DNA from: Marsupella aquatica
Taxonomy: Eukaryota > Plantae > Marchantiophyta
Assembly: GCA_973895155.1 (NCBI GenBank)
Contig: OZ316896.1
Span: 12,256,549-12,320,548, forward strand
Direction of reading: 5' to 3'
DNA: 64,000 nucleotides
In this document: piece after piece, positions 1,163 to 63,408 of the stretch
How the letters are laid out: every line of letters starts with the position of its first letter
How positions within the stretch are numbered: the stretch's first letter is position 1
The notes under the pieces: model-generated
Told to the model about the DNA's origin: nothing
Databases searched by the model: none
The model's input: the letters and a program-made list of their open reading frames with translations, nothing else
Program-made: the position numbers and the translations under genes

Positions 1163-3247
1163 TTACGAGTCCCAAATGGGGCCAAAAGCTGGAATGCCGA
1201 TAGCTTTGCAGGCATTCACTATCTCGTTCGTGCCGATCGGATTGCTGGTGACAACGACCACGTCAGCGTTCCATTCCTTGGCCTTGGTCAGGACTATTTC
1301 TTTAGTATTCGGCCTCCCAGACACTGCGGTGTCAATTACAGTAATTCTCCCACCAGGCGCGTCGTTGACGGCTTCCCAAAGCGCATCGCCAAAGCTTTCT
1401 CGGATTTTCCTGGCGATCCAAATGAGGTGCACATCTAATTTACGTTGTGGCTGCAGTAAGAAAGATAGGTACACGCCTATTCCCGAGCCCGTGCCGACCA
1501 TAAGTACCCTTTGGTACAGACTGCAGAGGTAGGGGAGACCTGGGCAGAAGTTCAAAACACATTCCACGGATATAAGTCTATGTTGTAAGACTGAGCATTC
1601 AAATTGACCTCTGCCTGGACCTAGCTAGAGCTTAGTACTTAATTATACAACTGCATCCCGCCTCGCCATCGAAACACCCATCTGTTATACATCAGTGCAT
1701 TTCTTCAATCTCTCAGGAAGCTGTCCACTAAACGTACTTTCACTTATGCTGAGAAAGACTGCGATACATGTACGATTCAATACCTGCGAAGTGGATAGAT
1801 CGAACCCATATGTGTGTGGGAGGCTTCTCCACGAGAGACTTTGTGAAGTCCCCGACCGCTCCTGCCAAAATAGTATGTCTCGTCTGTCCATCGGATATGA
1901 TCCCGAACGCGTGCCACTCTGAAAATGGAGAGCGGCTAATTCTGGCCAGAAACCCAGGCTTCACACCTCCTTCGAATTGGATCATGGAGTTGAACTTATT
2001 GGCCGCTACCACAGTCTCCACTGCTACCCTCCTCACGCCAAGCCACGGAAGAATGATCATGACTGTAGTGGCCACCGTGAACCAGAGGCCCTGCATCCGC
2101 GCCAGCTCTGTTCCCGACCGACTCGAAACTCGGTACGAATCGGTGGCCGGGTCCCAGAAGGAGCTGAGCAGGACGAACGCCCACACCAGAGCCAGCGATA
2201 TCCATCCCGCGAACCTGTGGACAATCTCAAAAAAGTTGTGGTGGAGGTGCCTGACAACCGGGAAGGCCGCCAAGGAGGTCAATGCCAGGAGACCCAAAAT
2301 GCCGAACGCAACTCCCACCATCTCGTCGCTGGCTGTGTGCCGGTTTTCGAAGGTCAGATCAATTGCGTATGCCAGCCACATTACAGCTCCGAGTCCACAC
2401 CCTGAGTGAATGCCTCCCAGGCTTTGGAGCAGGGAAGTCATCATAGTTTTCAGCCTCAGTGGAATCCACCAGTGACCCAGGATCTTGACCGAAAGCCAGT
2501 AAACGCCGCGAAGAAAAAGTTCGTTTCGCACAAGCACGGTCATCATAATGTTCCCCACAGCGAATACGACCGCCTTAGACTTGGCATATGGAAAGTGATT
2601 AGTGGCGGCTAATGTCACACCAATGGCATTGAGTACGATTGCGGCAAGGTAGAGGCGCTTATAAACCGTGAACCAGCTTTGCTCCCAGATGAGTGTTCCT
2701 ATGCGAGACTTGGCTTCAGTCTTCGTGCTCGGTCGCTTTTGAGGCTCACCTGTAAACACGACAGCTATGGTCACTTAGACTGGTCACAAAAATTCTAGAG
2801 TCCATTGAGCATCTCGTGTGCGTAGGAGGAAGCCATAGAAAGGCTTTTGTACTTCGCATTTGACATGAAGATTGATTGGTTTTGATTTGCACCTGGGGCA
2901 ATCTGACCACTGTTTGGCCGCTTGACGGACTTTTCTTTGTGGAGAACCCGGTTCTCAGAGAGTATATCTCCTGATTCGAGATCCCCCTGCTGTTCCAGAC
3001 GCTCAAGAACCTGCTCCATAAACTCTTCATGGTCCACGGGCACCACTTGGCCGAAGGTGAGTGAGTTGGTCCTGGAATACCTCCTGGACCCTCTCTCCAG
3101 TTCTGCGAAGCTCAGAGTTCGCACGCTGGAAAAACTTGGGGAGGAGTATTCCGTCGCCGACTCATAAATCTTCTTGCTTGCTTGCCGCACGAATTCGACG
3201 GGTGCTGTCACAAGCCTGCCGCTGCCTAACCGAGAAACTGCATCCAT
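1163..3247 (-). CDS. Ferric-reductase-like transmembrane + FAD/NAD(P)H-binding (FNR-like) protein, plant 'adenylate-forming reductase-like' family; predicted exons 3247-2893, 2749-1784, 1539-1163 (565 aa)
   Basis: Three minus-strand ORFs join in frame through GT-AG introns (CAG|GTGCAA...TTTACAG; CAG|GTATT...CCCAG); 1698 nt in total. Several hydrophobic helices with His motifs (GGIHSGCG, HHNFFEIVHRFAGW), EWHAF and GDFT (FAD-binding-like), GTGSGIG (NAD(P)H-binding) and C-terminal AFGPIWDS. The exon-1 donor is the weakest call. Confidence 0.8.
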
Positions 3248-7809: not shown

Positions 7810-8652
7810 GCTCCGTATCCACAGCCTTGAAATCTGGACACATAAAAGAGGGGAAAACACATTAAATAGGGGAATACAGTCTATCCTGTCTAAGTGCCGG
7901 CTCCAGGGTCTAAATGCATAAAATAGGTGAACACAGTCTACCTTGTCTAAGTGCAGGCTCCAGGTCTACGGTGTCTAAGTGCCAGCACATAAAATAGGGG
8001 AAAATACATAAAATAGGGAAACAGTCTACCGTGTCTAAGTGCAAGCTAAGTGCAGGCTCCTGGGTCTACCGTGTCTATGTGCTGGCTCTGGGGTCTAAAT
8101 GCAGGCTCCCGCACTATACCCGAAGCCTGCAGTTATCCACTTCATGCACTTCATCATAAGTGCATGTTGCACTTATCCATATGTGCATATTGCACTTTCC
8201 AATAGGTACATAATTATGAAATTGCTTCTGCAGTTCCACAAATGTATTGTCAAGTCATACTCACAGGGTGTCTCGTCCCCAGATTAATTCTCATAGTCCA
8301 CAATTCAACTGGATAAGTGCATGAATCTACAATGTGTAGTTGTCTGCTGCACTTATCCAATAAATGCTTCTAACATATGTGTTGCAATAATTGATGAACG
8401 CATCTGTACCCTTGTAGACTGAAATTCCCTTATATACATTTGTCATTTAGTGACGGGTAACCTGCACTTACGAATGGTGCATTTTTTGGTGCATTTGCAA
8501 ACTAAGGAATTTGTTGTATTATTGAGGTTCTACACAACCACCCTACAAACTACCCATGGAATGCAGTTATACATGCTGCATTTATCCATGGTAGACTGTA
8601 TATGCTCCGTATCCACAACCGTGAAATCTGGACACATAAAGTAGGGGAATAG
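7810..8652. repeat. Composite repeat: ~45-bp direct repeats at 7810 and 8604 enclosing a minisatellite (CAGTCTACCGTGTCTAAGTGCAGGCTCC-like units, ~7865-8110)
   Basis: GCTCCGTATCCACA.CC.TGAAATCTGGACACATAAA occurs twice; GTCTAAGTGC and AAATAGGGGAA units recur between them. Confidence 0.65.
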
Positions 8653-9439
8653 GCCTTACTAGCTGAGATTGACTCAGATTGACTCGGACCAAACATATAG
8701 GGCCCAATTTTTGAACCTCCACTAGGCCCCCATTTTTTTAACCTCCACTAAGTATGCACTAGTCTTTTCACCCCAATCGGGTCTTTTCACCCCACACTAC
8801 AACACTACCGACCCCTTTTGCGAACCCCGTCCCATCGCAACTAACAAAGGACCAAATTATGAAATTCCGGCGTTTGCGAAACGCTACGCATCGCAACCCT
8901 TTCGCATTCTTTGAAACCCATAGCTTCGCAATCGGACTTTCGCAACCCCTTCGCAACACCTTCGCACAGTGCGAAACTTATTTTATCACACATAAATCAC
9001 ATTTATGCGATCTCGACAGACTCTTTATCGGTTTGCGACGCGCTCTGAACTATAACTTATTTGCGAAGCTGTTGTCTTGACAATTCCGTTGCCATTCATA
9101 TGGTATCGCATAACTGCGTCAGTCAGGGTGTCGCACAATTGCGAAACCAAAAGTATCGCAATGTTCCAATACTCAATGTATGGCAAGTTTGCGATAGTAT
9201 GGCGTTCGCATGTGTTTCGCAAGGATAGTTTGAGGGCTGGGTTTTGTATATTTGGGTTCATAATTGGGTTGGGGTCTTATTGCTCCACATGAAGATACCA
9301 AAGCAAAACTTTATATATGCCAAAAATCCCTGAATGTACAAAAATTAGGGTTTTCTAAAACCCTATGGGGTATCAAATACCAAGACACTGTCCTTTGACT
9401 AATCCATATGCCATATGGAGTGAACTACATCTGCATCCT

Positions 9440-11479
9440 CTAGAATGGAGCCCGCCTACTCCTCTTTGCTGGCCTCTTCCCCTTGTCCTTCTTGCTTTGG
9501 GCGGGACGAGCTGGATGGGGAGGGGGTGGTGGTGGTGGTGGCGGTGGTGGTGGTGCCTGCTGCTCCTCCCCATCTGGCTCATCCTCATCATCGTCATCAT
9601 CCTCATCATCATCCTCCTGGTCTCCTGGTGTGCTAGGTGTGGCCCCTCTGGACCCACTCGTGGTGGCCCCGGTAGTGTCCCCATCATCAGCGCCGCTATC
9701 CTCCTCACTGCTATCCTCACTCCCCTCCTGCTCCTCCTTATCCTGCTTCCATGTCACAAGGTTAATTCAGGTTTAGGGTTAATAGGAAAAATGTATAAAC
9801 CTTATAAATGGAATGGGTGCGGGTTTAGAAAGGGTACTACAAATCACTCACATTAGCCAACTCTGCATCAACCAACTCAAAGAGATGTCTGGCCCCATGC
9901 TCTGCCCCTATCTCCATCTCCTTTGTTGTTATCTTGCGGCGGTACCTCTTATACTACCACAAAAAAATGAAACACCAAAACATAAGGGGCCCGGGTTAGT
10001 AACTAAGGGTACTTAAGCAAAAAAGGAATCCTAAAAAGGATAAAAAGGGTACCCTAACCAGAAAAAAAAACCCATTACCCTAACAAACATTTGTCACTCG
10101 ACACTAAATGTTTTTCAAAATGAAACAAGCTTTGCGAAACTCCCACCTTCGCAAATTCAAATATATTTAAGTTTGCAAAATAGACTGCGAATTGGATTGC
10201 CTTGCAATGGCTTCGCAAACCTTACGGGAAAAAGGTTATAATAGAGTTTGCGAAACAATTGCGAGGCAACCCGCTTCGCAATTGTTTCGCAAACTGTGCT
10301 TTTAAAAAAATCCGAGAAATGGCTAAGGCACGCAATGTGTCAGGGTGACCTAAAACGAAAGGGGAGGCCATAAGGGGTAAAGCAGAGGTCTGCGAGGGGC
10401 ATTGCAGGCAAGCAAACAACAATTGAAGGCAAAGGAAAAGAAGCAGGGGAGGAGGGGAGAGGACTCACGAAGGTTGCTTTCAGGCCGGGAAGTCCACCTT
10501 GCCCCATCTTGTGTGTGGTCTTGGGGCGTTTGCTGACTGCAAGGATGAACTTCTGGGGTGGTGTCCCCACTTCATCCACGATGTGCTGCAGCTGAGAGAC
10601 CTTCTCAGCCAATGCCTTGAGGTCTTTGTCTGACTTCCCGGCCTGAAGTGCCTTGGCCTCCTTCTCCTTCCAGAATTGGAGGTCCTTGGCTGCTTTCAGC
10701 TGCACCTCGACCTTATAGAACGCGTTCCACACATCCTCTGTGAATTGCACTGGCCTCCTCACGTTCTTGTACTCCTGCAAGCTTGCCAGGTAGGCCCTCA
10801 CCTTCCTCCTATCATGGTATCGTGCTTGAGACATTGAATTCAAAATTCTATCTGCAAGCCATTGGTCATCAATCTCTGCTCCATTTTTGAATGAATCTTT
10901 GACCTGAGTCATTACTTTCCTCTGCTCTGCTCTGCTTAGTTTCCCCCACTCAACACCTCGTGCAAAGCTAGTCCTCACAACAAGCCTGATAGTGCTCTTT
11001 GCCCCAGTGTAGGCCAACTCAGTAGGAATGCCCTCAACCAAGGCAATCAATGGCAGCTTCTTCCTCTCTTCCTCCTTTTTCCGCTGCGCCTCACGTTGTG
11101 CTTGAATCTCATCTCGTTCCTCCCTTCTCCTCTTCTTTTCGAGGGCTGCAGGAGAGAGTACTCCTGCCTTAGCCCTCTCCTCCTTCTTTCGTTTCTTCTC
11201 TCTGGCCTTCTCCTCAGCTGCAGCCTTTGCCTCTTTCTCCCTCTGAGCCTGCCCTGCTGCAACCCCGGTTTGCAAAGCTTGCCCTAAAAATGCACTCAAA
11301 GAAGCAATCCCAGCTGGTGTACTCAAATCCAAATGGCTCAGCTGTGTGGCATTGAGATGCTCGGCCATCAAATTTGTCCATTGATTACTCTCCTCATTCC
11401 TGTTCCCTCCATTGCCATTGCCACTCCCACTCCCACTTGCCCCTGCCCCATCCCCTCCACGCCCTCCACTAGAATCCAT
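9440..11479 (-). CDS. CACTA second gene, TnpA/Ptta-En-Spm-like accessory protein (tentative); exons 11479-10469, 9953-9852, 9742-9440; 471 aa, intact
   Basis: Two phase-0 introns with GTGAGT donors and AG acceptors join three ORFs without stops (1416 nt). Gly-rich N-terminus, K/E/R coiled coil, HKMGQGG motif reminiscent of the H-x-x-G-x-x-G motif of Ptta/En/Spm proteins, acidic tail, poly-Pro, basic NLS-like end KKDKGKRPAKRSRR. Confidence 0.7.
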
Positions 11480-11944
11480 AGCTATTCAACACCAAGCGCG
11501 CGCAAGCTCTCCTCCTGCCCTCCCTCACTTCAAAAAATGTTGAATGGGCCTCGTAATCCGGCGGGAAGGTCCGAATGCCCAGACAAAACACATTTGCGAC
11601 GTAGTCCGCATCGCAATTTGCGAATCAGCCCGCTTCGCAACTAGTATCTCAACTTTCCAAAACCAATGCGAAACCACACGCTTTGCAAAGCCTTCGCAAA
11701 GCTGCAGAGACACGAAAAAACGCTCTCAGGCTCTGTTTTTCCGAAGTTGTTGCGAAACATTTTGCTTCGCAAATAATGTGACCAAATTCTGAAGCAGGTT
11801 GCGAAGCAGGTCGGTTCTCAATATCGTGGCAATTCCTGGCGAATTTTTTTTTCACATTCTTTCCCTCCTCCTTTTGTTTAGGCCATGTAAGTTATACTAT
11901 GCCCTTTTGTGTAATTAAGAAATTCCGCCGTTTCAAATCCCGGC

Positions 11945-12420
11945 GTTTGTTAGGGTTGGGTCTTGGATGAAGCTGGTTTTTTTAGGGGTTAAAAGCGAGA
12001 TTACCAGTCAAACCTTCCGTTTTTTAAGCTATACATGGTGTGGGTGTAGGCTAATTTTGATAAGAGTTGGGTTTTGGTTTAAAATTAATAAGTGAGGAAA
12101 GGGTTTAGGATTAAAGTTGGGTTTGGGTTTAGGGTTTAAGTCTTTAATTTTGGGTTTAAGCAGGGTTTGCATTTATGGTTGTAGGCTTTTAGGGTTCAAG
12201 CAAAGGTTTAGGGTTTAAAACAAACGAGAGGAAGGGGATTGGGAGTGAGGGTCTAGGTTTTTGTAATAGGTCAGAGGTTTGGGGGTGAGGGTTTGGAAAA
12301 GGCAAAGCAAGGTTAGATGAGATTAATGTTTTAGTTGTTTTACCATGGGTTTTATGGGTTTTAATGGGTTTTATGGATCTTTTGGGTTTTAATGGTTTTT
12401 CCATGGGTTTTATGCTAACA
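11945..12420. promoter_or_regulatory. GT-rich, telomere-like/telo-box (TAGGGTTT) region between the two divergent CACTA genes
   Basis: Several TTTAGGGTTT, TTAGGGTT and GGGTTT variants (e.g. ~12128, ~12188, ~12207) between the ATG at 11479 (-) and the ATG at 12846 (+). Confidence 0.45.
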
Positions 12421-12845
12421 AAGGAGGAGGAGCTATGACAACTTGCAGGGTGCGGCACTTTTGCATGAATTGATACTAGCTAATGCGTATGCATCGTATG
12501 AGCCCGGGCATCTGGAGGTACGGACTAAAATAGATGGGTCTAGTTAGGCTTATTCATGTAATTAAAATTTTTGGTTCCCACTATCTATAAAGAGCACATG
12601 TATGTAAGGTGTTTGCTTTGTGTACTTGCAGCTTTTCTCATACTTCCAGATTCGGTTCATTATTTTAGAGCCACAAGACCTATTGGCACCGCTGAGCCTG
12701 GGTCTCAGAAAGGTATTTTTTAGTGTTCCTTTTCTGTTTGGTTTCATGTCATCATTACTTGAGAACTTACATATGTCCAGCTTGATATTGTGATGTTATT
12801 TGGTAATAACCCCTAACTTGCAAATTATACATCTTTGTAGGGGCA

Positions 12846-15800
12846 ATGTCTTCATCTTCTGAGATCTCCACCACAGATTCTTCCTCCTTCGATGAAGATA
12901 TACCACCTCCTCCTCAACCTCACACGACTGCACCTCCTCCTCGTGGTCCACCCCGTCAGCTTTGCCAATGTGCCAAATGCGTGGGTCAGGTTTCCCAAAA
13001 GTCCTATATATGCACCCAGCATATTGAGAGATATGGACGTTACGGACGTCATACAACAGGGGCTTCCTCATCCCATGTGGTAAGTGTTTACGCCTTAGTT
13101 TCTACCCTATTTCCACATTGCAATGGTGAAGGTTTTTAATTTCACACCTCTTGTTGTTTGTTTTGGTTTGGGTGGAATAGGTATCTAGTAGGCCTAGACC
13201 TGCGGCATCAGCACCTTATGTCCCATCACAAGGTGTTCTAGATGCTATAGGCAATGCATTTGCACAAGCCTTGGGTCTAGCAACAGCCCCCTCCAGTCCT
13301 AGGGCAGTTGGGGGTGAGCCTGTTGTCCCAAGAGGGAGAAAGCGTTCCAAGAGACGGCCCTGAGCGGATACTGATTTGTACAAGGCAGCGGTTACCGGTA
13401 GGTGGGGTAATTGCGAGTTTACTGGCAGATGTGTTCCTATCATCAAGGACTGGGATCCCCAAGACTCTTGGTTTGCCACAAGAGCTTTCCTATGGTGAGG
13501 AGGTAGAGGTTTGGGGAAGACGTTGGGTTATCAAACCTTCCACCCTTGGGGATAGACATGGCTATGGAGTTTTTGCTTGTGAAGACATCATTGTGGATAC
13601 CGAGAGTGGTAGTGGTGGACGCGGTCGAGAAGGACCTACGTTGTTTCCTTATGGTGGACCCATCTACAAGAGAAGACATTGGAACATGATCCTTGCACAA
13701 CATCCTGAGTGGAAGACTTATGCCTTGGAGTTAGATACTTTTGATGGAAACACTAGGAGGTATAGTGAGCAGCGGGTGATAGATGGGGACCCCATACGAA
13801 CTGGGAATATAGCTGGTTTCATAAACAGTACTGTGGGGACTCGCCCCAAGCGTAGGCAAAATTGTGAGTGGGTTTTCATTGAGGGTCCTCCACCAGCCCC
13901 TTATGGCCAGACATATCATCATGACCATTGTCTGGTTGTAGCTACTAGGACCATTCACTCAGGTGATGAGTTGTTTACTCACTATGTGTGGGATTAGAAA
14001 ATGACCATACACATGGCGTTTGGCCACATTTTGTATTTACACCAGTACCGATATTATTTCATGTTTGCACACCCCCATATATTCTTCTACATGTTGTAAC
14101 TATTTGCTTTGTAACTTTCAATTGTTTGCATTGTTTTTAGAATGTGCGACCCTCTCAAAATATGTTACTGCGGAGATTGAGAGCAGCATATCGGGAAATG
14201 GGTATGCCGGAAGAAGGACAAGGCTCTGAGTCACATTCCTCATCAAGTGACAGTGGAAGCAACAACCCTGATCGCAATGTACCTAGAACATATGAACAGG
14301 TTATTGATGACCAAGATAGAGCCATGGATGATTTTATGGTTGATTGGTTTGGTGTTGACGTCCCTGGTGATGATGCTGATCGAGGTGTCTGCTGATCAAG
14401 GAGGTCATGTGCCCCCCAATGATCCACGACCAAGACATACCCTCGAGGGACAGCGCCAATGGGAGGAAGCAGAGGAACATGCCCGAACTCCTATCTATGA
14501 GGGTGCTCGTTTGAGTTGTCTTTCTGCTATCTTGGGGTTGATGAATCTACAGGCCAAACACAAGGCAAGCAATGCCTTGTTATCTGATATGTTTGCACTT
14601 TGCCATGACCTTATGTTACCTTCTGGCAATGTGTTGCCAGGAACTTGGAAGGAGGCCAAGCGTGTTCTCTCATCAATTGGCATGGAATATCATATCATTC
14701 ATGCATGTGTGAATGATTGCATGTTATTTCATGGGGCCGATGAGAAGAAGACACAGTGTACTGAATGTCATGAGCCACGGTATGACCCCAACATGATTAC
14801 AAAGAAGGTGCCAAGAAAAGCTGTTTGTTGGTTTCCCATCATTCCTCGGTTGTTGCACATGTACAGGTGTTCTGATTTGGCAGAGTTGATGGTATGGCAT
14901 AAGACTCATCGATCAGAGCCTGGTGTTATGCGGTTGCCAATTGACTCTCCTGCAGTCAAACATATTGAGGAAACATGGCCAGACTTTGCACATGATCCTC
15001 GGCATGTGAGGTTGGGATTGGCATCTGATGGGGTTAGTCCTCATGCCCTTGGAGGCAAGGGAAGACCTACATCAGTTTGGCCTGTGGTTGTGATGAATTA
15101 CAACCTTCCACCATGGCTATCCATGAAGAAGGGGTTCCTCTTGCTGTCTTTGATTATTCCAGGTCCAAAAAAGGTGAAGAACTTTGACACTTATTTGGCA
15201 CTATTGATTGGAGAACTCCAAAAACTGTGGGGTGGAGTGTGGGCATATGATGGCAGGAAAAATACATGAGGCATTCCACGTGTATTTAAATTGAGAGGGG
15301 TAGTTTGTTGGACAATGCATGACTATCCTGGTAAGATGACTTTTTGACCATATGCCACCCTTCTTTGATATGCTCTTTAATATACTTGTTTGTCATGTGA
15401 CAACCCTAACATTTAGTCTGGTTTTATTTTTGGTGTAACCAGGGTTTGGCTTTGTCTCTGGATTGCAAACTCAGGGGTACAAAGCTTGCTCCACCTGTGG
15501 TCCACAATTGCAAGATATGGCAATTTGGTCCCCATGGCTTAGGAAGATTGTTTACATTGGGCATACAAAGTTTCTTCCGATGGGGCATGAGATGAGGTCT
15601 GACCCACTTTTATTTTCCTCCTTTGACATGCCCCTTGGTGATATGCAGGAAATTCCGGAACCAACAACTTTTGGGCATTGGAAGTCACTAGCTGATAGGG
15701 TGGCAGACCCTAATGATCCCCTCACCTTTGATGGTACTGGGTTGACGAGGTGGAGTATACTAGCCAGTTTGCCCTATTGGTCAGAGTTGAAGATCCGCCA

Positions 15801-17566
15801 TCTTTTAGACCCCATGCACATAGAGGGAAATGTGGGGAAGGCGTTGATAGCTCATTTTTATGGGGAGAAGGACACTAACTTTAGGGAGGCATGTGAAGAG
15901 TTGGAAATGCATCCAGATGTATGGGTACAAGTTGATCCTGCCACAGGTTTGGAACATCGTCCTTCTGCTCCTTGGGTGCTTAGTGTTGGCCAAAGACGTG
16001 AATTCTGGAATCGTATAGGGGAGATGCGGTTTCCTACAGGCTATGGTGACAATTTGAGGAAAGCTTTTGGGATGGAGGACAATCACAAATGGCCACGGTA
16101 TCTCAAGACACATGACTATCACCGCTTATTGCAGCATATATTGCCAGTGGCAATTATAGGGTTGGGGACCAAAGAAGTGCAAGATGCCATTTGGTCATTG
16201 GGTCGTTTGTTGAGATGGATATGCTCAAAGGAGATATATGTGGAAGAGATTCTCGGAATGGAGGTATTGGCAGCTGAGGTGGTTTGCAAGTTGGAGAAGG
16301 CCCTCCCTCCTTCCTTCTTTGATTGTCAGGTTCATTTACTTGTGCATCTTGTGAGGGAGCTAGGTTGCCATTGCTGGTCCAGTTCATTGTCGATGGATGT
16401 ACTGGCTTGAGCGTTACATGTCAATCTTGAAGGCTTATGTACGTAACCGTGCACGAGTGGAGGGAAGCATAGCTACAAGATACTTGGCTGCAGAGAGCAT
16501 GTTTTATTGTAGTAACATCTTGGCCACCATTGATCGGACTTTACCACGTACTTGGATGGAGGAGAGGCAAGAGGAGGAGGACCGTTTAACAGGAGCAACA
16601 AAAACACGCATGCTTACATCAACAGAGTGGACACAGTTGAATACATTCATGTTGAGTAATAGCAATGTCATGGATGAATGGAGGGAGTTTTATGACAATG
16701 CCAAAAGAATGAGTCAAAGGGCAAGGATTTTTCCTAAGTTGCATGAGTTTATGAAGGAAAAGTTGGTTGAGTTGGATGGCATTTTGGCACAAGGAGGAGA
16801 TGTCTCACAGTTTCCTACTATGACAAATGACATTCGGACCATTGTTCATGGCCCATTGAGAGTGGTAACATCCAAGACGGCCATGTGGACCCAAGGGAGA
16901 CACTTCAGGTTTCACTAGTTCCTAACCTTGTTTTCCATATTCATGTACTACTACTTAAGATATAGTAATCATTTTACTTAAGATAAGTGTGTTTTTCTCT
17001 TTTGGTATGAAAGGTTCCTCATAACATGATTAGTGTTTTTTGTGTAGTAGTAACAATATATGGGTCTTGTTAATTTCAGAATTTCTTCCCTTGATGAGAA
17101 GAGGGCTCGTACTTTTGATTGTGGAGTTCAAGGGCAGTTTTGTCAGGACTCCCGGAGTAGCCGACATGACAGGAACATTGTTCGTGATGTTGTGCCACAC
17201 TATGGGAAGATAGAGGAGATTTTGGTGGTCTCATATGACAACCAATCTAAGTTTGAGGAGTATGTCTTCAAGTGCAAGTGGTTCAAAGTGAACCTTGTTG
17301 GTAATAATCGCACTGTACTCCAAGATGAGAGTGGGTTTACACGGTTGAGGACAAGTGCCACTAGTTTTCAAGCATCTCATTGGCAAACGTCAGAGCCATT
17401 TACTTTCCCATCTCACTTGGAGCAATGTTTCTACGTTCCATACCCCTTAGACCCAGAGTGGTCACTTATCATCACATATGTGTCACGGTCTCGTTCCATT
17501 GTTTCAGACAAGCCAGACACTATTTTTGTGTCAGATGTAGAGGACATTGAAGGTGACCAAGTGTGA
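12846..17566 (+). pseudogene. CACTA TnpD/Tnp2 transposase, disrupted; exons 12846-13079, 14141-15330, 15443-16908, 17080-17566
   Basis: Exon 1 encodes CQCAKC...CTQHIERYG, like the transposase-associated Cys/His domain. Downstream motifs: IHACVNDCMLF, RLGLASDG, SVWPV...YNLPPW, TMHDYPG, LDPMHIEGNV, HLLVHL, RWMYWLERY, FKCKWF. Introns are GT-AG. Lesions: frameshift ~14385, in-frame TGA 15267-15269, frameshift ~16360. Confidence 0.92.
13181..13997 (+). CDS. SET-domain protein-lysine methyltransferase exon inside CACTA transposase intron 1 (SET ~13524-13988)
   Basis: ORF 13308-13997 has SET motifs in canonical order: IKPS...GYGVFA, PYGG, IDG...GNIAGFINS...NC, VVATRTIHSGDELFTHY, then stop. There are no post-SET cysteines. 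A strong acceptor lies at 13180. Reading from that acceptor gives a 1-nt frame offset near 13360. Confidence 0.85.
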
Positions 17567-18815
17567 GAGACACTTATGGATATTTAAACCAAAAATCTAT
17601 ATCATGGATTGTTCATGTTGTTTCTTAATTAATATTTCATACACCATTAGTGTGGTAGGTATTTTCATTTTGGACTCCTACTTTCAAAAGAGGTCATGCA
17701 TATAAGTGACATGGGTACTCCCTCCCTTATCCCTCCTCCCTCTTTGAACCCAAACTCTCCTTTCTCTTCCAAAAACTCCATAGCTTTTTCTCCTCCCTCC
17801 CTCTTCGCTAAAGTCTCTCCTATTTTTAGTAAACCCTCTTTGGACTCCCTTCTTCCTCCGTCCCTCATCCACCTTCCAACTCCCTTCCTCCCTCTTTCAC
17901 CTTTCACCTCCCTCCCTCCTCCTCCCCCATTCAAACTCTAACCTAGATGCACACACAAGTCTAACATAAACGTTTGCGAACTGTTTGCGAAACTAAACAA
18001 ATCCCAACCAAATCGCAATTCTGCCATTTCAATCGTTTCTCAATTATTCCATACTATACGCTTCACTATTTTGCGATATCCAGAAAATGCCACCTTAACC
18101 ATCCATATCATTTCGCATATTTGCCATACAAACCCATCGCAAATTGTTTGAAGCTAACCTTTTCGCAAACATCCTCCAATACTAATTGTTTTGCATCATT
18201 AATGTTACCATGGTTTTGGACTTTCAGAGCGGTCGCGGAGCCTTCGTAATGTGTTTTGTAATCTCTGTAGTTTCGCAAACTATTGTGATACAATAAAGTT
18301 CGCAAAATGTTTGCGATGCAAATCGCATGGAAGACCAAAGTTGCGATACCACAAGTATCGCAAATTGCGATGCGTATTGAGTCATCAACGGTTTGAAGCA
18401 TCTGGAATTGCAAATGTGTGTCCGGACTCAAATGAGCTTCGCAAAAGGGCAAAATATGTTGTAGTGCCAGTGTCACAGTCACCCCAATGTTGCAGCCCAG
18501 CAGTTTTCCCAAGGCCAGCGGCCGTGTGCTCCACAAGCTAACGGGACACAACCTCCGTACCAAGATGAAGTGCTAATGGCCATGGGCCCTCAGTCTTGTT
18601 GTGATTGAACTCTTTGCAGTTGGCGAGTGTAGTTACTCAATGCTTCAGCTTTACTCGTGGTTCAAACCCGGTTCAAACCATGGCTGGCTGATGTTGGTGA
18701 GTGTGAAACTTGAGGCCTCTTGTTATGATCTAACTTCTCTGTAGCTGCTCTGGCAAGTGTACTTGATGCTTCAGCTTTTCTCATGGTTCAAACCATGGCT
18801 GACTGATTTTGGTGA

Positions 18816-19147
18816 TGTTAAGGATTGCTCTTAGTCTTGTGACTCAAAGGTTACGGCACTTAGGCTAACCACAGTTAGGGTCTTAGCTGAGGTTAGGTTA
18901 GTCCTGTGTGACCTTGTATATACCAGGGCTAGTGTAAGCTGCTGGTGTGTGGTGCTTACTCATTGTAACGGAGCAACTTGAGGAAGAGGGAGAGCATGTG
19001 TGTTTGTTTACTCTTGAAGTAAAGCTTGAGTGTTCGTGTGGACGTAGCCTTGGAGAAGAGGTGAACCACCTAGAGATTGTGTCGACTACGTGTGCATGGA
19101 ATAAGTCATGGTTGTATGGTCGTTGCAAATGACGTCTTAGTTCAACA
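18816..19147 (+). mobile_element. Solo LTR (332 bp)
   Basis: Starts TGTTA, ends TCAACA, flanked by 5-bp TSD GGTGA (18811-18815 and 19148-19152). Removing it restores the second unit of a local tandem duplication. Confidence 0.85.
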
Positions 19148-19484
19148 GGTGAATGTGAAAGGCAGGGCAGGTGAGGAACCCTAAGTCCCCTTCAAGGACC
19201 AGCCCAAATGCACAAGCACCTCACCCGCTAGCTAAATATATCTCCTTGATGGGATGTCAATAAAGCAACAGATTTCACCAAAAACATACTAGTAAACTCT
19301 TGTCTAGCAATAAAATATTTGCAAAAATGCTTAGTGTTAAGTTTGTTCTTAGTTCGGTAGGGCTTTAGTTCTTTTGCCATTTTGGCTTTTGGGCTTTTTG
19401 GCCATCCTGGCTTTTTCCTTTGTTTCTCTCTTTATTGTATTTTTTGCCTTGGGATACTCACCAGGTCGTGCAGGCTTTATTCTT

Positions 19485-19615: not shown

Positions 19616-21224
19616 TATAGGTTTTGCAATGTAATTATTGAGACATGTTATGTGTGATCCTAACCATGCACTTGTGGTGGTCATGTTCAATACTTGTACA
19701 TTGCAAAAAAATGTCACAGATTGCATAAAAGATGTCATTGCAGATGTCCATGTCAAAAAAAATGGTTGCAAAAGTTATACAAGAGATATGTGATGACAAT
19801 ATAAGCAGACACATTCAAACAACCCTAGGTGGAGGGTGACATCCCCCCTCTTCCTCATGCACCTCCTCTTCCCATTTCTCTTGCCCCCCCCCCCCCTAAA
19901 AAAAAAAGCAAGGGTGTCCCTTTTCTTTGCTTTTCCCTCTTATTGCCTTATATTATTTTCTTTATTTTCACCTTGAGTTCCTTTGCTCCAATTTGTCTCA
20001 TCCCCTATCTTGTACTTATGGGAGAATATGCTACTATTCATCCCTTCACCCATGGGTGCATCATTAATTCTCTTTCCTACTTTGAATTCTATGTCTCCTA
20101 GTCCTTATCCCCTCATAATGGTGTCCCAAGTGCTCATTCCAATGGCAACACATGACACTCACATAGAAGGATGCAATCATTCCCCTCTTAGAGAATCTTT
20201 GTGCATCAAAATAATTTGTCTTGTATGCTTTGGGTTCAAGAGATAGTTTTTTACTAATGAAAGGTTGGGATAAAAGAGGTTATAAATCCAATGGTCATTG
20301 AATGTTCCCTCCAAAAGTGATTTTGTGACCAGATGACCCACCACTTTTGGCAGGATAGGGTATTATAGTAGTAAGATAGTAAGATTTGATTTCTTATGTC
20401 ATCTGATGCCTCATTGTTTCTTATTGTTATTGCCAATTGGCTCGCTTTAGCTTTTGCGCTTTGATTCATTTGAATTAAATAACATATGTAGAAGTAACTC
20501 ATTAAAGGCCTATTAGTACTGGACTTGGTATGGGTACCTAATCACTATAATATACAATCCCACCCTTTTTTACTTATGGTCTTACAAAATGCAGTTTTGG
20601 AGGGAACTCATTATGACCCTTGGATTTAATGCCTAAATATTCATGTCCATGAGATTGGGTGAAAGGATGAATAAAGACTCTCTCCTAGCTTGGGATAGGG
20701 ATGCGCTTCCACCCACACCTAGACTATGGCACTAACATCCATAAAAGGATTCTAATATCAAGGTGACTGGAAATTGAATGTGAGTTGACATGTGACTATA
20801 ATGGGTAGGTGGGTCTAACAAGAAAATCTAAGTAGACTCACATCACTTTTGGACACATGTTTGTCACATTCAATTAATGTAAACATATAGAAAAAGAACA
20901 ATACAAATTAGAGTTTTCAGTTTAAAAGACATCATTCATAGGAAAGTGGTAAAAAAGGCTATTGAGGGGAGAACTAAATTAATTTCTTACTTTTTCTATT
21001 CTATGTGCGAAGAATTTCTTCCAACTTACATTATTTAACACTAAAATCCTAATTCTTTTTTGCAATAACCATATAATTGACCAAGGACACAAATGAATGG
21101 CCCCACACATAAAAATGGCCACAACAATGAAATGGTCACAATGACAATTGGTTGCAACAATGAAATAGTCGCAATAATAAAATGGCTGTAATGACAATTG
21201 TGCACTGCATGGGCAATGGGGTTA

Positions 21225-21630
21225 TCAACTCGACACCTTTTGTCGCCTCAATATCTTTAAGTTTCTCTCCTCGACATCTTTTCTCACCTCGACATCTTTA
21301 TCACCCCAGGATCTTTTAATCACCTCAACATCTTTTATCACCACAACATTTTTTATCATCTTGACATTTTTTATCACTTCAATGTCTTTTTCTCACCCTT
21401 GACATCTTTTTATCCCCTCGACATCTTTTATCACCTCTACATTGTTGATCACTTTGATATCTTTTTCTCATCTCAATATCTTTTCTCACCTCAACATCTT
21501 TTCTCATCTTGACATCTTTTATCACCTCAACATCTATTTTCATCTCAACATCTTTTTCTCTCCTTAACATTTTTTTCTCTCCTCAATATCTTTTCTCCTC
21601 TCCTCGAAATCTTTTATCACCTTGACATCT
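21225..21630 (+). repeat. 18-19-bp minisatellite (consensus ~TCACCTCGACATCTTTTTA), ~20 copies
   Basis: Direct inspection. Confidence 0.9.
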
Positions 21631-23400: not shown

Positions 23401-24220
23401 TCAGATACAATGGCCATAAAATCTTGTAAATACCATTTGGGGAAGGGTTATTAACCTACCCTGAAGCTCACGGGTCTCATCAAATAACACTTTTCACATT
23501 TGGGGTTTCATGTAACAAATACCTCAGATTTGGACAAATCATGCCATTATAGGAGAATATAGCAAAGCTTGAAAATTAGGGATGATGACATTAGATCATA
23601 AAGAATAGGTCATAACTTTTTCACAACATTGTGTGCAATATTTTTTCTTTTTTTTCTTTCATCAACCTCTAGAGTGACTAATGGTTATGGCATAAGATCA
23701 ATCCTAATGGCAAATATGGACTATGAATTCTACAGTCCATCTACAACTATAATAAGAGATCCCATGTTTTTTCATCCTTTGTTCCAATACAAAAAAGTTA
23801 CTGGGCGGGAAATGTCCACAGCCATTGGATTATTTGGCTGTTTTCCTTGACCATTGATGAAAGAAATGTGCACCCCTAGCACATATGTGCTTCCCACTGC
23901 CCCATAAATACCCCAGTCGGACTCCCTATGGGCCGGCCCTCCTAGTGCAACTCACTTGCATAGGGCTCCTAACCCATAACTACTGTAGTGACTTCAAGTA
24001 CATCAAGTTGCAAACTTTGAGACGCCCTATTGTGCCACTTTTGCAAGGTGAAAATGTGCCACTTTTGCGAGGTTAAGAAACCTTTGCTCGACGCCTGTGA
24101 CTCCATCGTCATTGCCAACAGCAGACTAAAACCTCAAGACCTCTTCGCGCGTGGTGGAGCTCGAAAGCTTGATGTACTGCAGAGAATGAAGTAGTGCATA
24201 GGGTGACGGCTTTCGATGCG

Positions 24221-27200
24221 ATGGAGCTGAGCACAGGAGGAGGAGGAGGAGGAGGCACCGTGAGCGGGGGTGGGAGAGCAGGAAGCGGGGTCATAAACGT
24301 AGCCGGAAGCACTGGTAACGTTCGTGCAGCAGTTCAGGACCTCTTCAATCTGTATCTTGCGCGGCCAGCCAGCAGTAGGAGTGCTGTCATTCAACAGAAC
24401 TCTAAAGCTCGGGTGAGGACGAATACCGCTTCAGGAAAGCACGAACTCCCCACAGATGAGCAATTCACTCTGGACTTCTTTCAACTGCAGAAACATTTTC
24501 CTGACCCGGAGCAATTGCGGTCATCAGCTGAGTCTGTTCTTGCTTCGTTACTCGTGCAATGCAGTTCTCACTCCATTCAGGTCGAATTTCTCCTCTTCGC
24601 GCTGCGATCGTTGGCGAGGTTAGGGGTCCTGCACTGGGACTCTTTTATTCCCTTGTTATTACATGCGGTTGGGACGTTGGAGATTTCAGCAGGGCTGCAG
24701 CAGGCCGGACTTCATAACACTGTAGGGACCCCACAAGGTCCTCAATCGTCCCCAGGGAATGCCCACATGATGCTGATGGGAGGAGGGTCTGGAGCTCTGC
24801 CTGGTGTTGCGGCTTCTCCAGCTCCCAATTCTGCTGTGGTAACCTCCCCATCCCATTCTGCAGTTGACGTTTCCACAAATTTCTCCCAGTCAAGCAATGT
24901 AACAGGAGGGAGCCCATTTGGTTCTGGGAACAAGGGTACTGCAGTAGGCACCAAGGTGCTAGCCTGGTTGTGTCCTCTAATTTGCAAGATCCTGTCGGCC
25001 GCTCTAGATACCGACCTGAAGCCTGCAGTTGTGCACGACATCCTCGTGCAGGTTGTGAGCTGGATAAATCAATGGGATTCAAAGGGGCCAAATGGGAGAG
25101 AAGTACAATCTGTCAATAGGTGGGAAAGCACGGTGGAATCATCAACCTGGCTGCACAGCTGTGTGGAGCTCGTATGGGCGTTGATTGATGAGAACAAGTG
25201 TCGGGTACCCCTCTATTCTCTGCTTCATGGGCACTCCCAACTGCAGGTTGACCTCTGGCCTGAGAATGAAGAATTGTTTGCCTTGTTTCTTGAGGTCCAC
25301 CGCAGACGTGACAAGATTGCTTTGCACATGCTAATGCTTGACCATCATCTGCACTGCCCAACTTTTGCCACATTGCGAATGACCGCACTGACTTATCCTG
25401 GCACTCTTGGAGAACCTCTTCATGGAGAGGATGTTGCAAATGCTGTGTCCAGGGGTAGTCTTGACTGGGAGAGGGCAATGCGGTGCTTAAGCCACGCCTT
25501 GCGTTGTAATCCCTCTGCTGATTGGTGGAGAAGGGTTTTAGTTTTCGCTCCAAGGTATCGGAAGGATTCACAGTCTCAACCGCCTGCTCCTAGGCCAGGA
25601 CCAGTGTTCATGACACAACCAGCTCCGGAGTTCTCCTCAGATATGATCTGTGAGGCTGTTGTCGATCGCATCATGGAACTCATGCAACCTATGCAACCGA
25701 CCAATAATAATGGCAGTGGATCTATTCATGTTTCCATGACGGAGTCCGGGCGCTGGCAAGAGTGGCTTATTATTGCAGACCTCTTCTACTTTTTCATGCG
25801 AAGTGGTTTCATAGATTTTCTGGAGTTTGTTGACAAGTTGGCAATACGATTTGCCCGTGGGGAGCAAGCAGTCATTCGCAGCAATCATGTCACATGGCTT
25901 CTTGCTCAGGTATTTCGCCTAGAGACAGTCACAGCTGCTCTTAGCACTGACTCCAGAAAGCTGGAAACGGCTCAGAAGATCTTGTCCTTCCACATGGCAG
26001 AACGACCAATCGATCAAACAACAAATCTTTCCCCGCAGAACATGCTTTTAGATTTTGTGGGGAGCAGCCAAACTCTAAGGCTTTGGTCAATTAATCGTCA
26101 AATGATGGAGCAAATCACTGGGAATCGTATGCCTGAGCATATTCAGAAGGGAAAACAAATCGATGAATGGTGGAAGCAGGTCGCCAAAGGTGAACGTGTT
26201 CTCGATTATTCTAACTTGGATGATAAGTCGATGGGAATGGTGTGGGTGCTTTCACATACAGTGAGCCAACCGATATGTGACTCAATAATGACTTGGATAA
26301 ATCAAAAGGGTCATGGTGAAGTGGTTGGCGTAGGGGGTCAGGCAGGAGAGAGAATGCCTGTTGTGCTTGAAGTTCGCCCTCTGCCAATCTTGCTACTCTC
26401 CGGGCTCTCTTTGCATCTATGTTTTAGGCTCATCAATAACATTGAGGAGGTCATGCTTGCCGGACAGATAATTCCTAGCATTGGGATGATAGAAACGTAT
26501 GTGCGTCTGTTGTTAGTTGCACCCCAGACACTCTTCAGGCACCATGCTCATGGAATTATGCAGAGATTTCAACAAGGATTGTCTAAGCCTGGACTCTCTC
26601 TTCTTCTCTTGGAGCTTATGAACTATCGTCTCATACCTTTGTACAGATATCAGGGAAAAACTAAGCAGCTGATCTTTGACATTGCCAAAATCCTCATAAC
26701 TGTAAAAGTCAAACGCGGTGAACATCGTCAATTTCGGCTGGCTGAGAATCTCGCCATGAATTTGATATTGTCTTTGCGAGAAGTTGTACTGATCAAGAAG
26801 GAGCTTAAAGGTGCCACAACAGAGTTCACGGAGACATTGAACAGGGCAATGGTGATCAACCTTGCATTTACAATGAAGACCAGGGGAGTTGCAGAGATTG
26901 AACAGCTGCTCGTGCTGCAGCCAGCTCTGGACCAAATCTTGGCAAGCACCTACCACAAATGGTCAGAGAAGACATTGCGGCACTTTCCTCCCACTCTGAG
27001 AGATGCAATCAAGGGACGCCCGGACAAGAGACCTCAGATTATAAACCAATGGCAACAGGTCGAGGCGACTGTTTTACATCATTGCCGACAGCTCTTGGCA
27101 CCAAGCCATGACCCTTCGTACATACTTACAGCTCTCAATGCCATGAATCACAGCTTTCCCCAGCATCGACAATATTTGTGTGCAGGAGCTTGGATCCTGA

Positions 27201-29113
27201 TGGATGGACATCCAGAAAGTATCAATAGCGTCAATCTTGGACGTATCATGAAGGAACTTCCACCTGAGGAGGTGACAACAAATACTTATACAATGGTTGA
27301 TGTCCTACTTCACAATATTCAGCTTCAGCTTCAGCATGGTCATCTATTGCATGATCTGTTGCTGAGAGCAAGTGCCAGTCTAGCAATGCTCATGTGGACT
27401 CAAGAGATCCTGCCGTTTGACATCACTCTGTTAGCTCTGGCTGACCGTGACGATGACCCACATGCTCTCCGCTTGGTGGTGGGTTTACTGCTCGATAGGC
27501 AAGAGTTCTTAAACCGTGTGCAGCTCCACTTGGTTAAAAGTGGTCAAAATGAGCGTATCAACCATTGGGACCACCCAGGTCCGTTCCAGAGGCCGGAACC
27601 TCAGCAAGCCCTTGGTCAGCATCTAGCTGGGAAAGACAGGTATCCTATATTCTTTGATGAGATGTGTTTGCGCGCTCTGCCTATCATACCACTCATTATG
27701 TATCGCCTCATAGAGAATGATGCAACAGAGACTGCAGAGCGACTCCTGGCATCATACTCTGGCCTCTTTTTCTATCACCCAGCGCACTTTACGTTTGTCC
27801 GAGATACCCTGGCATACTTCTACGGAAGCCTCCCATCCAAGCTTGTGGTTCGACTCCTTGGGAGCCTCGACTTGACGAAGATTCCCTTTTCAGATACATT
27901 CCTGCAGCACGTTTCCCTAAACACAGGAAATACTCTTCCACATGAGTACTATTCAAACTTGCTTCAGGGTCTTGTCACCAAAGTCATTCCCCCTGTGAAC
28001 AATGTTCGCTCAAAGTCGAGTGCCACTGCAGCAGACGGACTACCTCCAGCTTCTCGTTCGAGCTCTAACAGAGGTCCAGCAGTGTCAACCAGCGGTGCAA
28101 CAAATACACCTGAGGTTCAAAGGGCGTTTTATCAACATCAGGATCCGGGAACCTACACTCAATTGGTTCTGGAGACTGCAGTGGTGGAGCTGTTGTCACT
28201 ACCTCCGCCACCTAACCAAGTGGTGACAATGCTTGTCAATGCAGCTGTACGTGTCCCTGCCCCTCCTACAGGACATTCATCTTACGGGACCCCAAGGAGC
28301 CCATTACTGCCCACTTCACCGACAAGTGTAGGTGGAGACAACTCCAACGCAGGGAACATTTCTGGGAGTCAAGCTTTTTCACTTACCTCGAGCCCGCTAG
28401 TTATACAAGCATGCGGACTCCTGTTAGCACAGTTGCCAACAGCATTTCATGGAGCCTTCTATTCGGAAACTGCACGAATAATCAAGGATAGTTGGTGGGT
28501 GATTGATCAAAACAAATCCGCTCGGGAGCTGGGTCCTGTATTTAGTCATGTAATCTGGGATCCGACATGGGCAGTTCAGGATGAGATGTCGAATGTGTTA
28601 GGAAATACGCTGGCTCTTGTACATACTTTTGGTGTGAATCTTCCTTATGATTGGTTGGAAGGAATGCATGCCATTATCAAACTTCAGAGACCCGTCACCT
28701 CTGTTGTGCATTTGAGACTGGCTTACAGGATCATGGGACCTTTGTTATCTCGTCTGGTGATCTCTCGACCTCTTTTTACAAAGACGCTTGCTTTGCTCTT
28801 TGCAATCATGGCAGATGTATTCGGTCGCAACTCACCGACATCGCCTGCCATTGACCTCAGTGAAATATCCGATCTTGTGGACTTTTTACATCATGCAGTG
28901 ATCTTGGAGGGACAGGGACCAAATAACGTTGGCGGAAAACCTCGTCCAGACACTCTTGCATTCTGTACTAAGGCTGTAGATCTGCTTCATCCAGATCTGA
29001 AACACCTGTTTCGTCATCTTAGTGCTGATGTCAACACTTCCATTTATGCTGCCACTCATCCCAAAATGACGCAAATTCAAATGCCTGCGTCATCTTTTGG
29101 GACTTCAATGTGA
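24221..29113 (+). CDS. MED23: Mediator of RNA polymerase II transcription subunit 23, single exon, 1630 aa
   Basis: 4.9-kb uninterrupted ORF from the first ATG at 24221. Plant MED23-like segments: LFNLYL, LDHHLHCPTF, GSLDWERAMRC, RSNHVTWLLAQ, RGEHRQFRLAENL, FPQHRQYLCAGAW, LVLETAVVELLSLP, SIYAATHPK. Confidence 0.92.
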   Translation: MELSTGGGGGGGTVSGGGRAGSGVINVAGSTGNVRAAVQDLFNLYLARPASSRSAVIQQNSKARVRTNTASGKHELPTDEQFTLDFFQLQKHFPDPEQLRSSAESVLASLLVQCSSHSIQVEFLLFALRSLARLGVLHWDSFIPLLLHAVGTLEISAGLQQAGLHNTVGTPQGPQSSPGNAHMMLMGGGSGALPGVAASPAPNSAVVTSPSHSAVDVSTNFSQSSNVTGGSPFGSGNKGTAVGTKVLAWLCPLICKILSAALDTDLKPAVVHDILVQVVSWINQWDSKGPNGREVQSVNRWESTVESSTWLHSCVELVWALIDENKCRVPLYSLLHGHSQLQVDLWPENEELFALFLEVHRRRDKIALHMLMLDHHLHCPTFATLRMTALTYPGTLGEPLHGEDVANAVSRGSLDWERAMRCLSHALRCNPSADWWRRVLVFAPRYRKDSQSQPPAPRPGPVFMTQPAPEFSSDMICEAVVDRIMELMQPMQPTNNNGSGSIHVSMTESGRWQEWLIIADLFYFFMRSGFIDFLEFVDKLAIRFARGEQAVIRSNHVTWLLAQVFRLETVTAALSTDSRKLETAQKILSFHMAERPIDQTTNLSPQNMLLDFVGSSQTLRLWSINRQMMEQITGNRMPEHIQKGKQIDEWWKQVAKGERVLDYSNLDDKSMGMVWVLSHTVSQPICDSIMTWINQKGHGEVVGVGGQAGERMPVVLEVRPLPILLLSGLSLHLCFRLINNIEEVMLAGQIIPSIGMIETYVRLLLVAPQTLFRHHAHGIMQRFQQGLSKPGLSLLLLELMNYRLIPLYRYQGKTKQLIFDIAKILITVKVKRGEHRQFRLAENLAMNLILSLREVVLIKKELKGATTEFTETLNRAMVINLAFTMKTRGVAEIEQLLVLQPALDQILASTYHKWSEKTLRHFPPTLRDAIKGRPDKRPQIINQWQQVEATVLHHCRQLLAPSHDPSYILTALNAMNHSFPQHRQYLCAGAWILMDGHPESINSVNLGRIMKELPPEEVTTNTYTMVDVLLHNIQLQLQHGHLLHDLLLRASASLAMLMWTQEILPFDITLLALADRDDDPHALRLVVGLLLDRQEFLNRVQLHLVKSGQNERINHWDHPGPFQRPEPQQALGQHLAGKDRYPIFFDEMCLRALPIIPLIMYRLIENDATETAERLLASYSGLFFYHPAHFTFVRDTLAYFYGSLPSKLVVRLLGSLDLTKIPFSDTFLQHVSLNTGNTLPHEYYSNLLQGLVTKVIPPVNNVRSKSSATAADGLPPASRSSSNRGPAVSTSGATNTPEVQRAFYQHQDPGTYTQLVLETAVVELLSLPPPPNQVVTMLVNAAVRVPAPPTGHSSYGTPRSPLLPTSPTSVGGDNSNAGNISGSQAFSLTSSPLVIQACGLLLAQLPTAFHGAFYSETARIIKDSWWVIDQNKSARELGPVFSHVIWDPTWAVQDEMSNVLGNTLALVHTFGVNLPYDWLEGMHAIIKLQRPVTSVVHLRLAYRIMGPLLSRLVISRPLFTKTLALLFAIMADVFGRNSPTSPAIDLSEISDLVDFLHHAVILEGQGPNNVGGKPRPDTLAFCTKAVDLLHPDLKHLFRHLSADVNTSIYAATHPKMTQIQMPASSFGTSM

Positions 29114-57823: not shown

Positions 57824-58153
57824 TGTTGAAACTCACGCGGTCTTGTCTCTTGCCTGCTCCCATGCCTCGCTGTCAGATGTGGTTACTGTACACTCTGGCT
57901 GCATCGGATCTTACTGACTACCTTGAGCTTGCTGCCGGTCGGTAGGCTGTCTGGTCGATCCCGTTTGACTCTGATCCTCTTTCTGTCCTATCTGGCTGCG
58001 CCCACTTAGACTGACTACTACTTATATTCCCGGTCAGAGTTTACTTGTCGTTTTCCTTTGCTCACGCACTTGGACCCCACTCCATTCATGTATTTAAACG
58101 CACTATTGTGCCTTACGTTAATCAAGTTTCATAATCATCTGAAAACTTCCACA
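57824..58153 (+). repeat. 5' LTR
   Basis: Near-identical to 63409-63738. Confidence 0.97.
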
Positions 58154-58165
58154 TGGTATCAGAGC
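58154..58165 (+). promoter_or_regulatory. Primer-binding site complementary to initiator tRNA-Met
   Basis: TGGTATCAGAGC directly after the 5' LTR. Confidence 0.9.
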
Positions 58166-58211
58166 CTACCGCTCCTTGCACCTTTATCTGATTAGAGTGT
58201 TACTATTTACC

Positions 58212-62717: not shown

Positions 62718-62803
62718 TAACACATCTTTGATACATCTCCATCGCTCTAAGATTGTCTTACAGCATCCCACGATTAACTGGTGTCAATAGTCAGTTTCTC
62801 CAT

Positions 62804-63286: not shown

Positions 63287-63408
63287 GGTGGTTTCTATCC
63301 AATGTACAAAATTTGATTTGGATAGATTCAGTTACCATACCGACGTTCCATATAATTATCACAGCACACTCTCCTCCTGAATCTTTGCGAGCCATGGTTG
63401 AGGGGAGG

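Follow-up and report, generated by a model that had tools for sequence, protein, structure and literature searches.

Introduction

Motif clusters in VANDAL transposons sit in non-coding parts of the element. These transposons belong to the Mutator superfamily and encode a factor, VANC, which in the portions of the literature at hand is not a SET enzyme. In the Arabidopsis CACTA element Spm1, the protein TnpA binds clusters of the motif CCVTCGCAAA at the Spm1 termini and removes CG methylation there by way of host glycosylases, according to the available part of its description (bioRxiv 10.64898/2026.08.24.746577). The same text describes TnpA-like proteins as restricted to flowering plants, gives TnpA a tandem helix-turn-helix, and reports that domains are separated, either through alternative splicing or by placement in distinct genes; in the part available neither SET domains nor bryophytes are mentioned.

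SET proteins encoded by DNA transposons are also in print. In the accessible sections of one preprint, red-algal Plavaka elements of the EnSpm superfamily (PAG2/PAG3) combine SET with inverted-repeat arrays and a proposed self-targeting, and PAG2 is a separate gene in which SET is fused to an adenine DNA methylase (bioRxiv 10.1101/2025.02.11.637652). HarbingerS and Phytophthora MuDR elements encode a SET protein as well (PMC12730594, in part). Several groups of transposons are on record as carrying SET, and the passages available contain no test of SET function. Outside transposons, the available part of a paper on Legionella RomA/LegAS4 describes a short SET protein that has no NHS histidine, methylates H3K14 and needs ankyrin repeats for H3 binding (PMC10653858).

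Here we describe a liverwort CACTA element found in a window of 64,000 nucleotides (the whole stretch of DNA that was analysed). It resembles Spm1 in its CACTA ends, its TnpD transposase, its second gene, its clustered CpG motifs with a TCGCAA core and its CpG-rich termini, and a splitting of domains by alternative splicing is predicted for it too. It differs from Spm1 in having a SET gene, a dyad with an 11-bp spacer, motifs that are also internal, a second gene (ORF2) that is divergent, and a liverwort host. Unlike the Plavaka elements it has a TnpD of the Transposase_21 type, and its SET domain is an exon inside the transposase gene, with no methylase domain. HarbingerS and Phytophthora MuDR belong to other superfamilies and hosts, and their SET domains can be likened to this one by description only. 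Like VANDAL, it encodes a factor of its own and has motif clusters outside coding sequence, whereas its transposase is a Transposase_21 protein rather than one of the Mutator type. RomA is ~23–26% identical to the liverwort SET protein, with no sign of a common substrate. The original prediction knew of no described plant CACTA with such an architecture. No land-plant CACTA with SET turned up in our literature search, whose coverage excluded Repbase Reports and most subscription journals, but the claim has to be narrowed, given the SET cargo of other DNA transposons including Plavaka. Our best single reading, with a probability of roughly 0.4, is that ORF2 protein bound to the dyads recruits the SET protein, which would mark the histones of the element's copies in a way that benefits the element.

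A CACTA element in a leafy liverwort

The element occupies positions 8795..18466 of the window and carries three genes, for ORF2, the SET protein and TnpD. Its 10-bp ends are inverted and flanked on both sides by a CCA duplication (Table 1), as predicted for a single CACTA element bounded by terminal inverted repeats (TIRs) and target-site duplications. With CACTA TIRs and a 3-bp duplication, TnpD domains and clustered subterminal repeats, it has the features that define the CACTA/EnSpm group. In run X1, the fit of one contig begins at 8795 and is preceded by 34 non-matching letters. The flanks (8000–8790 and 18467–19220) are both repeats, and the right one reaches great depth in every run; the element is thus surrounded by further repeats.

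For the MED23 gene near the element (24173–29113, plus strand; one unbroken reading frame of ~1,630 codons), identity falls from 96% with Calypogeia fissa to 76% with Marchantia, 73% with Riccia and 66% with the moss Ceratodon, and this series identifies the host as a leafy liverwort. No Sphagnum MED23 was among the best 120 matches. Elsewhere in the window there is a young Copia retrotransposon (57824–63738) with 330-bp LTRs that are 99.4% alike and an in-frame stop at ~60280; a frame with an RNase H1 N-terminal (Cauli_VI) match lies on the minus strand of this region (62804–63331). Other features are a minus-strand membrane protein (1163–3247) with a weak match to a ferric-reductase NAD-binding domain (E = 0.003), and a degenerate tandem array of ~95-base units (21220–21630).

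Table 1. Features of the element and its target site, with positions in the window.
Feature	Position	Strand	Remark
Target-site duplication CCA, left	8792..8794	.	
Terminal inverted repeat, left, CACTACAACA	8795..8804	+	
Motif cluster 1, left subterminal, dyads and half-sites, CpG-rich	8815..9225	.	Same place in L012 and L024
ORF2 exon 3, with acidic and proline-rich tail and basic end	9440..9742	-	Tails of P0043 and P0069
ORF2 exon 2, 34 codons	9852..9953	-	Matches relatives
Motif cluster 2, ORF2 intron 1	10130..10295	.	Same intron in L012, L013 and L024
ORF2 exon 1, 337 codons; DNA-binding protein of predicted TnpA type	10469..11479	-	Homologues, dN/dS
Motif cluster 3, upstream of ORF2, shared promoter region	11590..11825	.	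Same place in L012, L013 and L024
GGGTTT-rich stretch, two exact telo-boxes	11950..12410	+	Weakly conserved
Predicted 5' untranslated exon	12632..12712	+	AG/GT ends; aligns in diverged subfamily, adjoining introns do not
First coding exon, ATG 12846, CxCxxC...H zinc knuckle	12841..13079	+	Predicted common start of SET protein and TnpD
SET exon (linker and SET domain ~13500–13994), own stop	13181..13997	+	Pfam, homologues, fold
TnpD exon 2	14141..15330	+	Pfam; conserved acceptor
TnpD exon 3	15443..16908	+	Pfam
TnpD last exon (DUF4216)	17080..17566	+	Pfam
Motif cluster 4, right subterminal	17970..18445	.	Same side in L024
Terminal inverted repeat, right (reverse complement of left)	18457..18466	-	
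Target-site duplication CCA, right	18467..18469	.	

SET protein and transposase are predicted splice products of one gene

The expected TnpD transposase is present: Transposase_21, DUF4218 and DUF4216 all score above their Pfam cut-offs, and CxxC and HxxxH are visible in the translations. The first coding exon of this gene ends in a phase-0 GT donor in all 12 loci compared. Its zinc knuckle is present in Riccia members too, and in one relative the exon has a weak match to Transpos_assoc (E = 0.031). Two phase-0 acceptors follow the donor, one at 13181 that leads into the linker and SET domain and one at 14141 that leads into TnpD. Among the fetched loci, 10 of 12 have the SET acceptor in phase, 23 of 24 have a stop behind the SET domain, and 13 of 14 have the TnpD acceptor; gene models P0002 and P0007 represent the knuckle-plus-SET form. 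Because donor, acceptors and SET stop are all conserved in phase, we predict that the SET protein and TnpD are alternative splice products with a common zinc-knuckle exon. Four gene models in which SET is fused to the transposase (P0033, P0210, P0238 and P0239) were rejected as annotation read-through, given that stop. Some deep-branching SET members–P0231 and P0232 (Calypogeia fissa), P0229 and P0246–have no knuckle exon, and some of these could be host-domesticated or lie in other transposons.

The SET protein keeps cofactor-binding and catalytic residues

The SET exon matches PF00856 above the cut-off (E = 3.3e-6; 27.9 bits against 22.4) and its model has a SET fold, which confirms the SET exon of the original prediction. 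The model, built from 63 input sequences, has a pLDDT of 90.8 and was used in place of one from 25 close sequences (pLDDT 38). We found 42 close homologues, with 86% identity in Calypogeia and 65–83% in Sphagnum, and a profile search extended the family to 110 clusters at 50% identity. Among 30 clusters looked up, those named to organism came from Riccia sorocarpa (10) or Calypogeia (2). The Riccia members aligned are 36–44% identical, and several Riccia gene models run from this SET domain into Transposase_21.

Pfam recognises SET in 52 of the 63 members, at E-values up to 0.1. The two GxG glycines are kept in 57 and 61 members, Asn118 in 56, Asn130 in all 63 and the terminal tyrosine in 51 (with 8 gaps), and Tyr65 and Tyr83 are kept as well. 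The protein therefore combines the fold, the GxG cofactor motif and the C-terminal catalytic tyrosine of SET lysine methyltransferases. Canonical SET families also have an NHS/NHxC motif and a post-SET zinc site. Here the asparagine of that motif is kept and the histidine is replaced by serine in 60 of 63 members, and no member has CxC in the first 25 residues of its tail. The best PDB match of the deep profile (E = 2e-5) is RomA/LegAS4, which is without the NHS histidine too, so the loss speaks against membership of the canonical families rather than against activity. The GxG motif and C-terminal tyrosine are named as SET features in the part of the RomA literature available (PMC10653858). 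The SET protein is likely to be an active minimal enzyme. If it were instead a catalytically weak, PR-like binding module, it could aid the transpososome on nucleosomes or compete with TnpD as a regulator; the lost histidine, the absent post-SET and the similarity to PR domains (Z 11–12) would suit such a role, but the GxG motif, the two asparagines and the C-terminal tyrosine persist in members down to 25% identity, and we find this explanation improbable.

Foldseek matched the model to SET8 (E = 1.5e-7), and structure comparison gave Z 13 to both Set1 and SET8. The model resembles SET8, Set1/MLL, PRC2, SET7/9 and RomA about equally, PRC2 and ATXR5 folds scoring equal to Set1; activating and repressive families tie, and the substrate is not readable from the modelled fold. 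We count this tie, like the replaced histidine and the missing post-SET site, against our main reading. The host plant SET classes (SUVH, E(z), ATX, ASHH and ATXR5/6) are tied at 13–26% identity in the structure comparison, none of the matches to the SET protein is a close host SET gene, and a phmmer search of the PDB with it gave no match. Viral SET folds match at 16–24% identity, and a phage cluster in the Atlas reaches a score of 0.92, sharing 158 features; these likenesses are leads only as to origin.

In the 63 members we found no flanking domain, chromatin-reader domain or DNA methylase (PF01555). The missing reader is one reason to consider an enzyme active on a non-histone target, either the element's own TnpD or ORF2 protein, so that transposition would be tuned, or a silencing factor of the host. 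Such targets are known for SET enzymes (PMC10653858, available part), Lys/Arg runs are abundant in ORF2, and the first exon is predicted to be common to the SET protein and TnpD. Against this, histone methyltransferases give the best matches by fold and by profile, although the PDB is biased towards them. We regard a non-histone target as somewhat unlikely.

Dyad motif clusters and a candidate binder

The four non-coding clusters of one CpG motif that had been reported for this locus are real, and the motif can be defined more sharply. Its unit is a dyad, TTGCGA-N11-TCGCAA, with an 11-bp spacer. Allowing at most one mismatch, the window contains 14 dyads compared to 0.18 expected, and 13 of them (9 exact, 4 with one mismatch) are in the element. 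There are 52 TCGCA/TGCGA sites in the four clusters (1,340 bp, with cluster bounds set after the sites were seen), 5 in the element's remaining 8,332 bp and 54 in the 54,328 bp outside it. CpG observed/expected ratios are 1.3–1.6 in the clusters, 0.30–0.35 in the coding parts of the element and 0.54 in MED23. Exact dyads occur in 6 of 32 metagenome loci. L024, which has no recognisable right TIR, has dyads in the same four places, and L012 has them in all three that it covers, with unrelated spacers. Since the length of the spacer is fixed and its sequence is free, the dyad looks like the site of a dimeric protein. Its half-site shares TCGCAA(A) with the core of the Arabidopsis TnpA site, and by this analogy the motif-binding half of the original prediction is well supported.

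ORF2 is the obvious candidate for the binder. It is intact, with three exons in frame (471 codons), an acidic, proline-rich tail and a basic end, much as had been predicted, although the label 'nuclear-type' given to it describes composition only. It has 246 homologues, the best at 61% identity, and is rich in Lys/Arg runs. It has no Pfam match in 30 members, no PDB match, no Atlas match and no profile likeness to the SET protein. Together with the description of TnpA-like proteins as restricted to flowering plants, these missing matches count against our main reading.

Telo-box-like sequence between the genes fared less well than the motif clusters. GGGTTT is enriched in the stretch upstream of the plus-strand gene (14 occurrences compared to 0.77 in base shuffles), but the two exact telo-boxes have no counterpart in the matching region of any of 5 relatives, and we rejected telo-box recruitment as a core feature. 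The stretch nonetheless lies in the promoter region, and bears on whether the SET protein might methylate histones in an untargeted or repressive way, dampening host defence broadly as RomA does, or limiting the element. The closest profile match is a host-repressing enzyme, PRC2 and ATXR5 folds score as Set1 does, and some transposons of Marchantia are silenced by H3K27me3 (10.1101/2022.10.24.513474, available part). On the other hand the telo-boxes are not conserved, and an untargeted enzyme would presumably help rival elements equally, which leaves this explanation clearly unlikely.

Linkage, selection and possible transfer

A SET-based scan found 32 metagenome loci (peat loci), so the counts given here cover SET-bearing loci. 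Their ORF2 genes are 76–90% identical to a Sphagnum jensenii protein. A transposase is downstream of SET in 16 of the 18 loci with at least 400 bases on that side. ORF2 is upstream and divergent in 5 of the 11 loci with at least 2 kb; four of the six misses are SET fragments, and we count these misses against the main reading.

By the Nei-Gojobori method, dN/dS between the window and the loci is 0.17–0.26 for SET in 32 of 32 pairs (which have one long branch in common and are not independent), 0.20–0.23 for ORF2, 0.11–0.23 for TnpD and 0.09–0.16 for the knuckle exon. Among the peat loci the median is 0.94 for SET (463 pairs), 0.42 for ORF2 and 0.45–0.81 for parts of TnpD. Such values are as expected of decaying copies, though highest for SET, and the excess of SET over the transposase parts counts against the main reading. 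Synonymous divergence (dS) to the peat loci is 0.56–0.99 for SET, 1.3–2.2 for the next TnpD part and 1.4–1.7 for ORF2; the lower value for SET could reflect either module exchange or extra constraint on its codons.

The SET segment is not confined to one copy and shows no sign of neutral evolution between hosts, so the sequence checks proposed with the original prediction do not refute that prediction: the segment is family-wide, with relatives in Calypogeia, Sphagnum and Riccia, it co-occurs with the transposase and the divergent gene, and its dN/dS, like that of ORF2, is below 1 between hosts. That it is a neutral captured fragment of a host gene would agree with the broken SET of this copy and with dN/dS near 1 among the peat loci, but the ratio of ~0.2 between hosts, the 110 clusters with residues kept and matches that include no close host SET gene largely refute it, and we give it almost no weight. 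On the evidence of these sequences, the SET module is a real, old and selected part of a CACTA lineage of bryophytes, where it stands next to a site system of the TnpA type.

The SET and TnpD DNA of the liverwort element is 70–78% identical to the peat loci, and one TnpD part is 72–76% identical to full-length peat matches compared to 48% for Riccia models. In a midpoint-rooted SET tree, for which alternative topologies were not compared, the Sphagnum sequences fall in a 12-member clade with the window and Calypogeia (support 96/96), and Riccia sequences lie outside it. This pattern fits horizontal transfer between liverworts and mosses; the alternative is old paralogous lineages.

A dead copy of a young family

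The copy in the window is dead for SET protein and TnpD alike, as read from its sequence. The SET exon is interrupted by a stop (13361) and a frameshift (~13460), and TnpD has 4-base insertions at 14378 (exon 2) and 16358 (exon 3) and a stop at 15267 (exon 2); the original prediction does not mention these lesions. The two insertions are private and could be excision footprints of another element. Among the best-supported matches listed, public contigs of four runs are without the SET frameshift, both TnpD insertions and the TnpD stop; the SET stop is not among the contig differences listed for those runs. The sequences thus reveal a young family free of most lesions of this copy. In run X1 the MED23 contig has 0 differences and a depth of 12.6, and element contigs (up to 1,529 bases) have depths of 361–438; in run X4 the depths are 39.8 for MED23 and 573–650 for the element. 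As a rough guide, from depth, which is no copy number, the family has ~15–35 near-identical copies. At 80% likeness, run X1 also contains a second subfamily, at a depth of 530–635, whose alignment spans ORF2, SET and TnpD but is largely limited to exons.

Compared to the family, 30 of this copy's 39 listed element differences are C-to-T (with 210 differences on the whole stretch). They comprise 15 in CG, 8 in CHG and 7 in CHH contexts, where 244, 258 and 1,347 sites are available, and this excess by context makes it likely that the copy was methylated in the past. Three of the changes fall in motif CpGs. The copy was hence not protected, which counts against the main reading.

Discussion

Under our main reading, ORF2 protein would bind TTGCGA-N11-TCGCAA at the ends and promoter of the element as a TnpA-like dimer. 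The SET protein, for which splicing from the transposase's first exon is predicted, would reach the dyad sites through the shared zinc knuckle and would then probably methylate lysines of the local histones, to the advantage of the element. Our certainty falls from alternative splicing, through ORF2 as binder and an active enzyme, to recruitment by the knuckle and lastly an activating histone substrate. Arabidopsis TnpA does its job with no SET protein, by way of host glycosylases, and we count this too against the main reading. It is likely, and we hold this with considerable confidence, that the element gains from its SET protein in some way. The proposed pairing of a motif binder with the element's own methyltransferase is supported in part, in that SET is family-wide and selected and the motif half is supported by analogy; its telo-box part is weak.

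A bolder extension, which we think speculative and on balance doubtful, is that this bryophyte CACTA is a complete sequence-addressed histone writer, in which splice choice would switch between marking and jumping via the shared knuckle, and that the whole unit moved between leafy liverworts and peat mosses. With a small family, a defined site, young near-identical copies and a clade that includes the genetic model Marchantia, the question is testable.

The known plant anti-silencing factors, TnpA and VANC, bind motifs and borrow host machinery. If our main reading is true, this element would be, as far as our search reached, the first land-plant transposon that itself writes a mark on a protein. 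The findings also suggest that TnpA sites of the TCGCAA type are older than the flowering plants, and they hint at transfer between liverworts and mosses.
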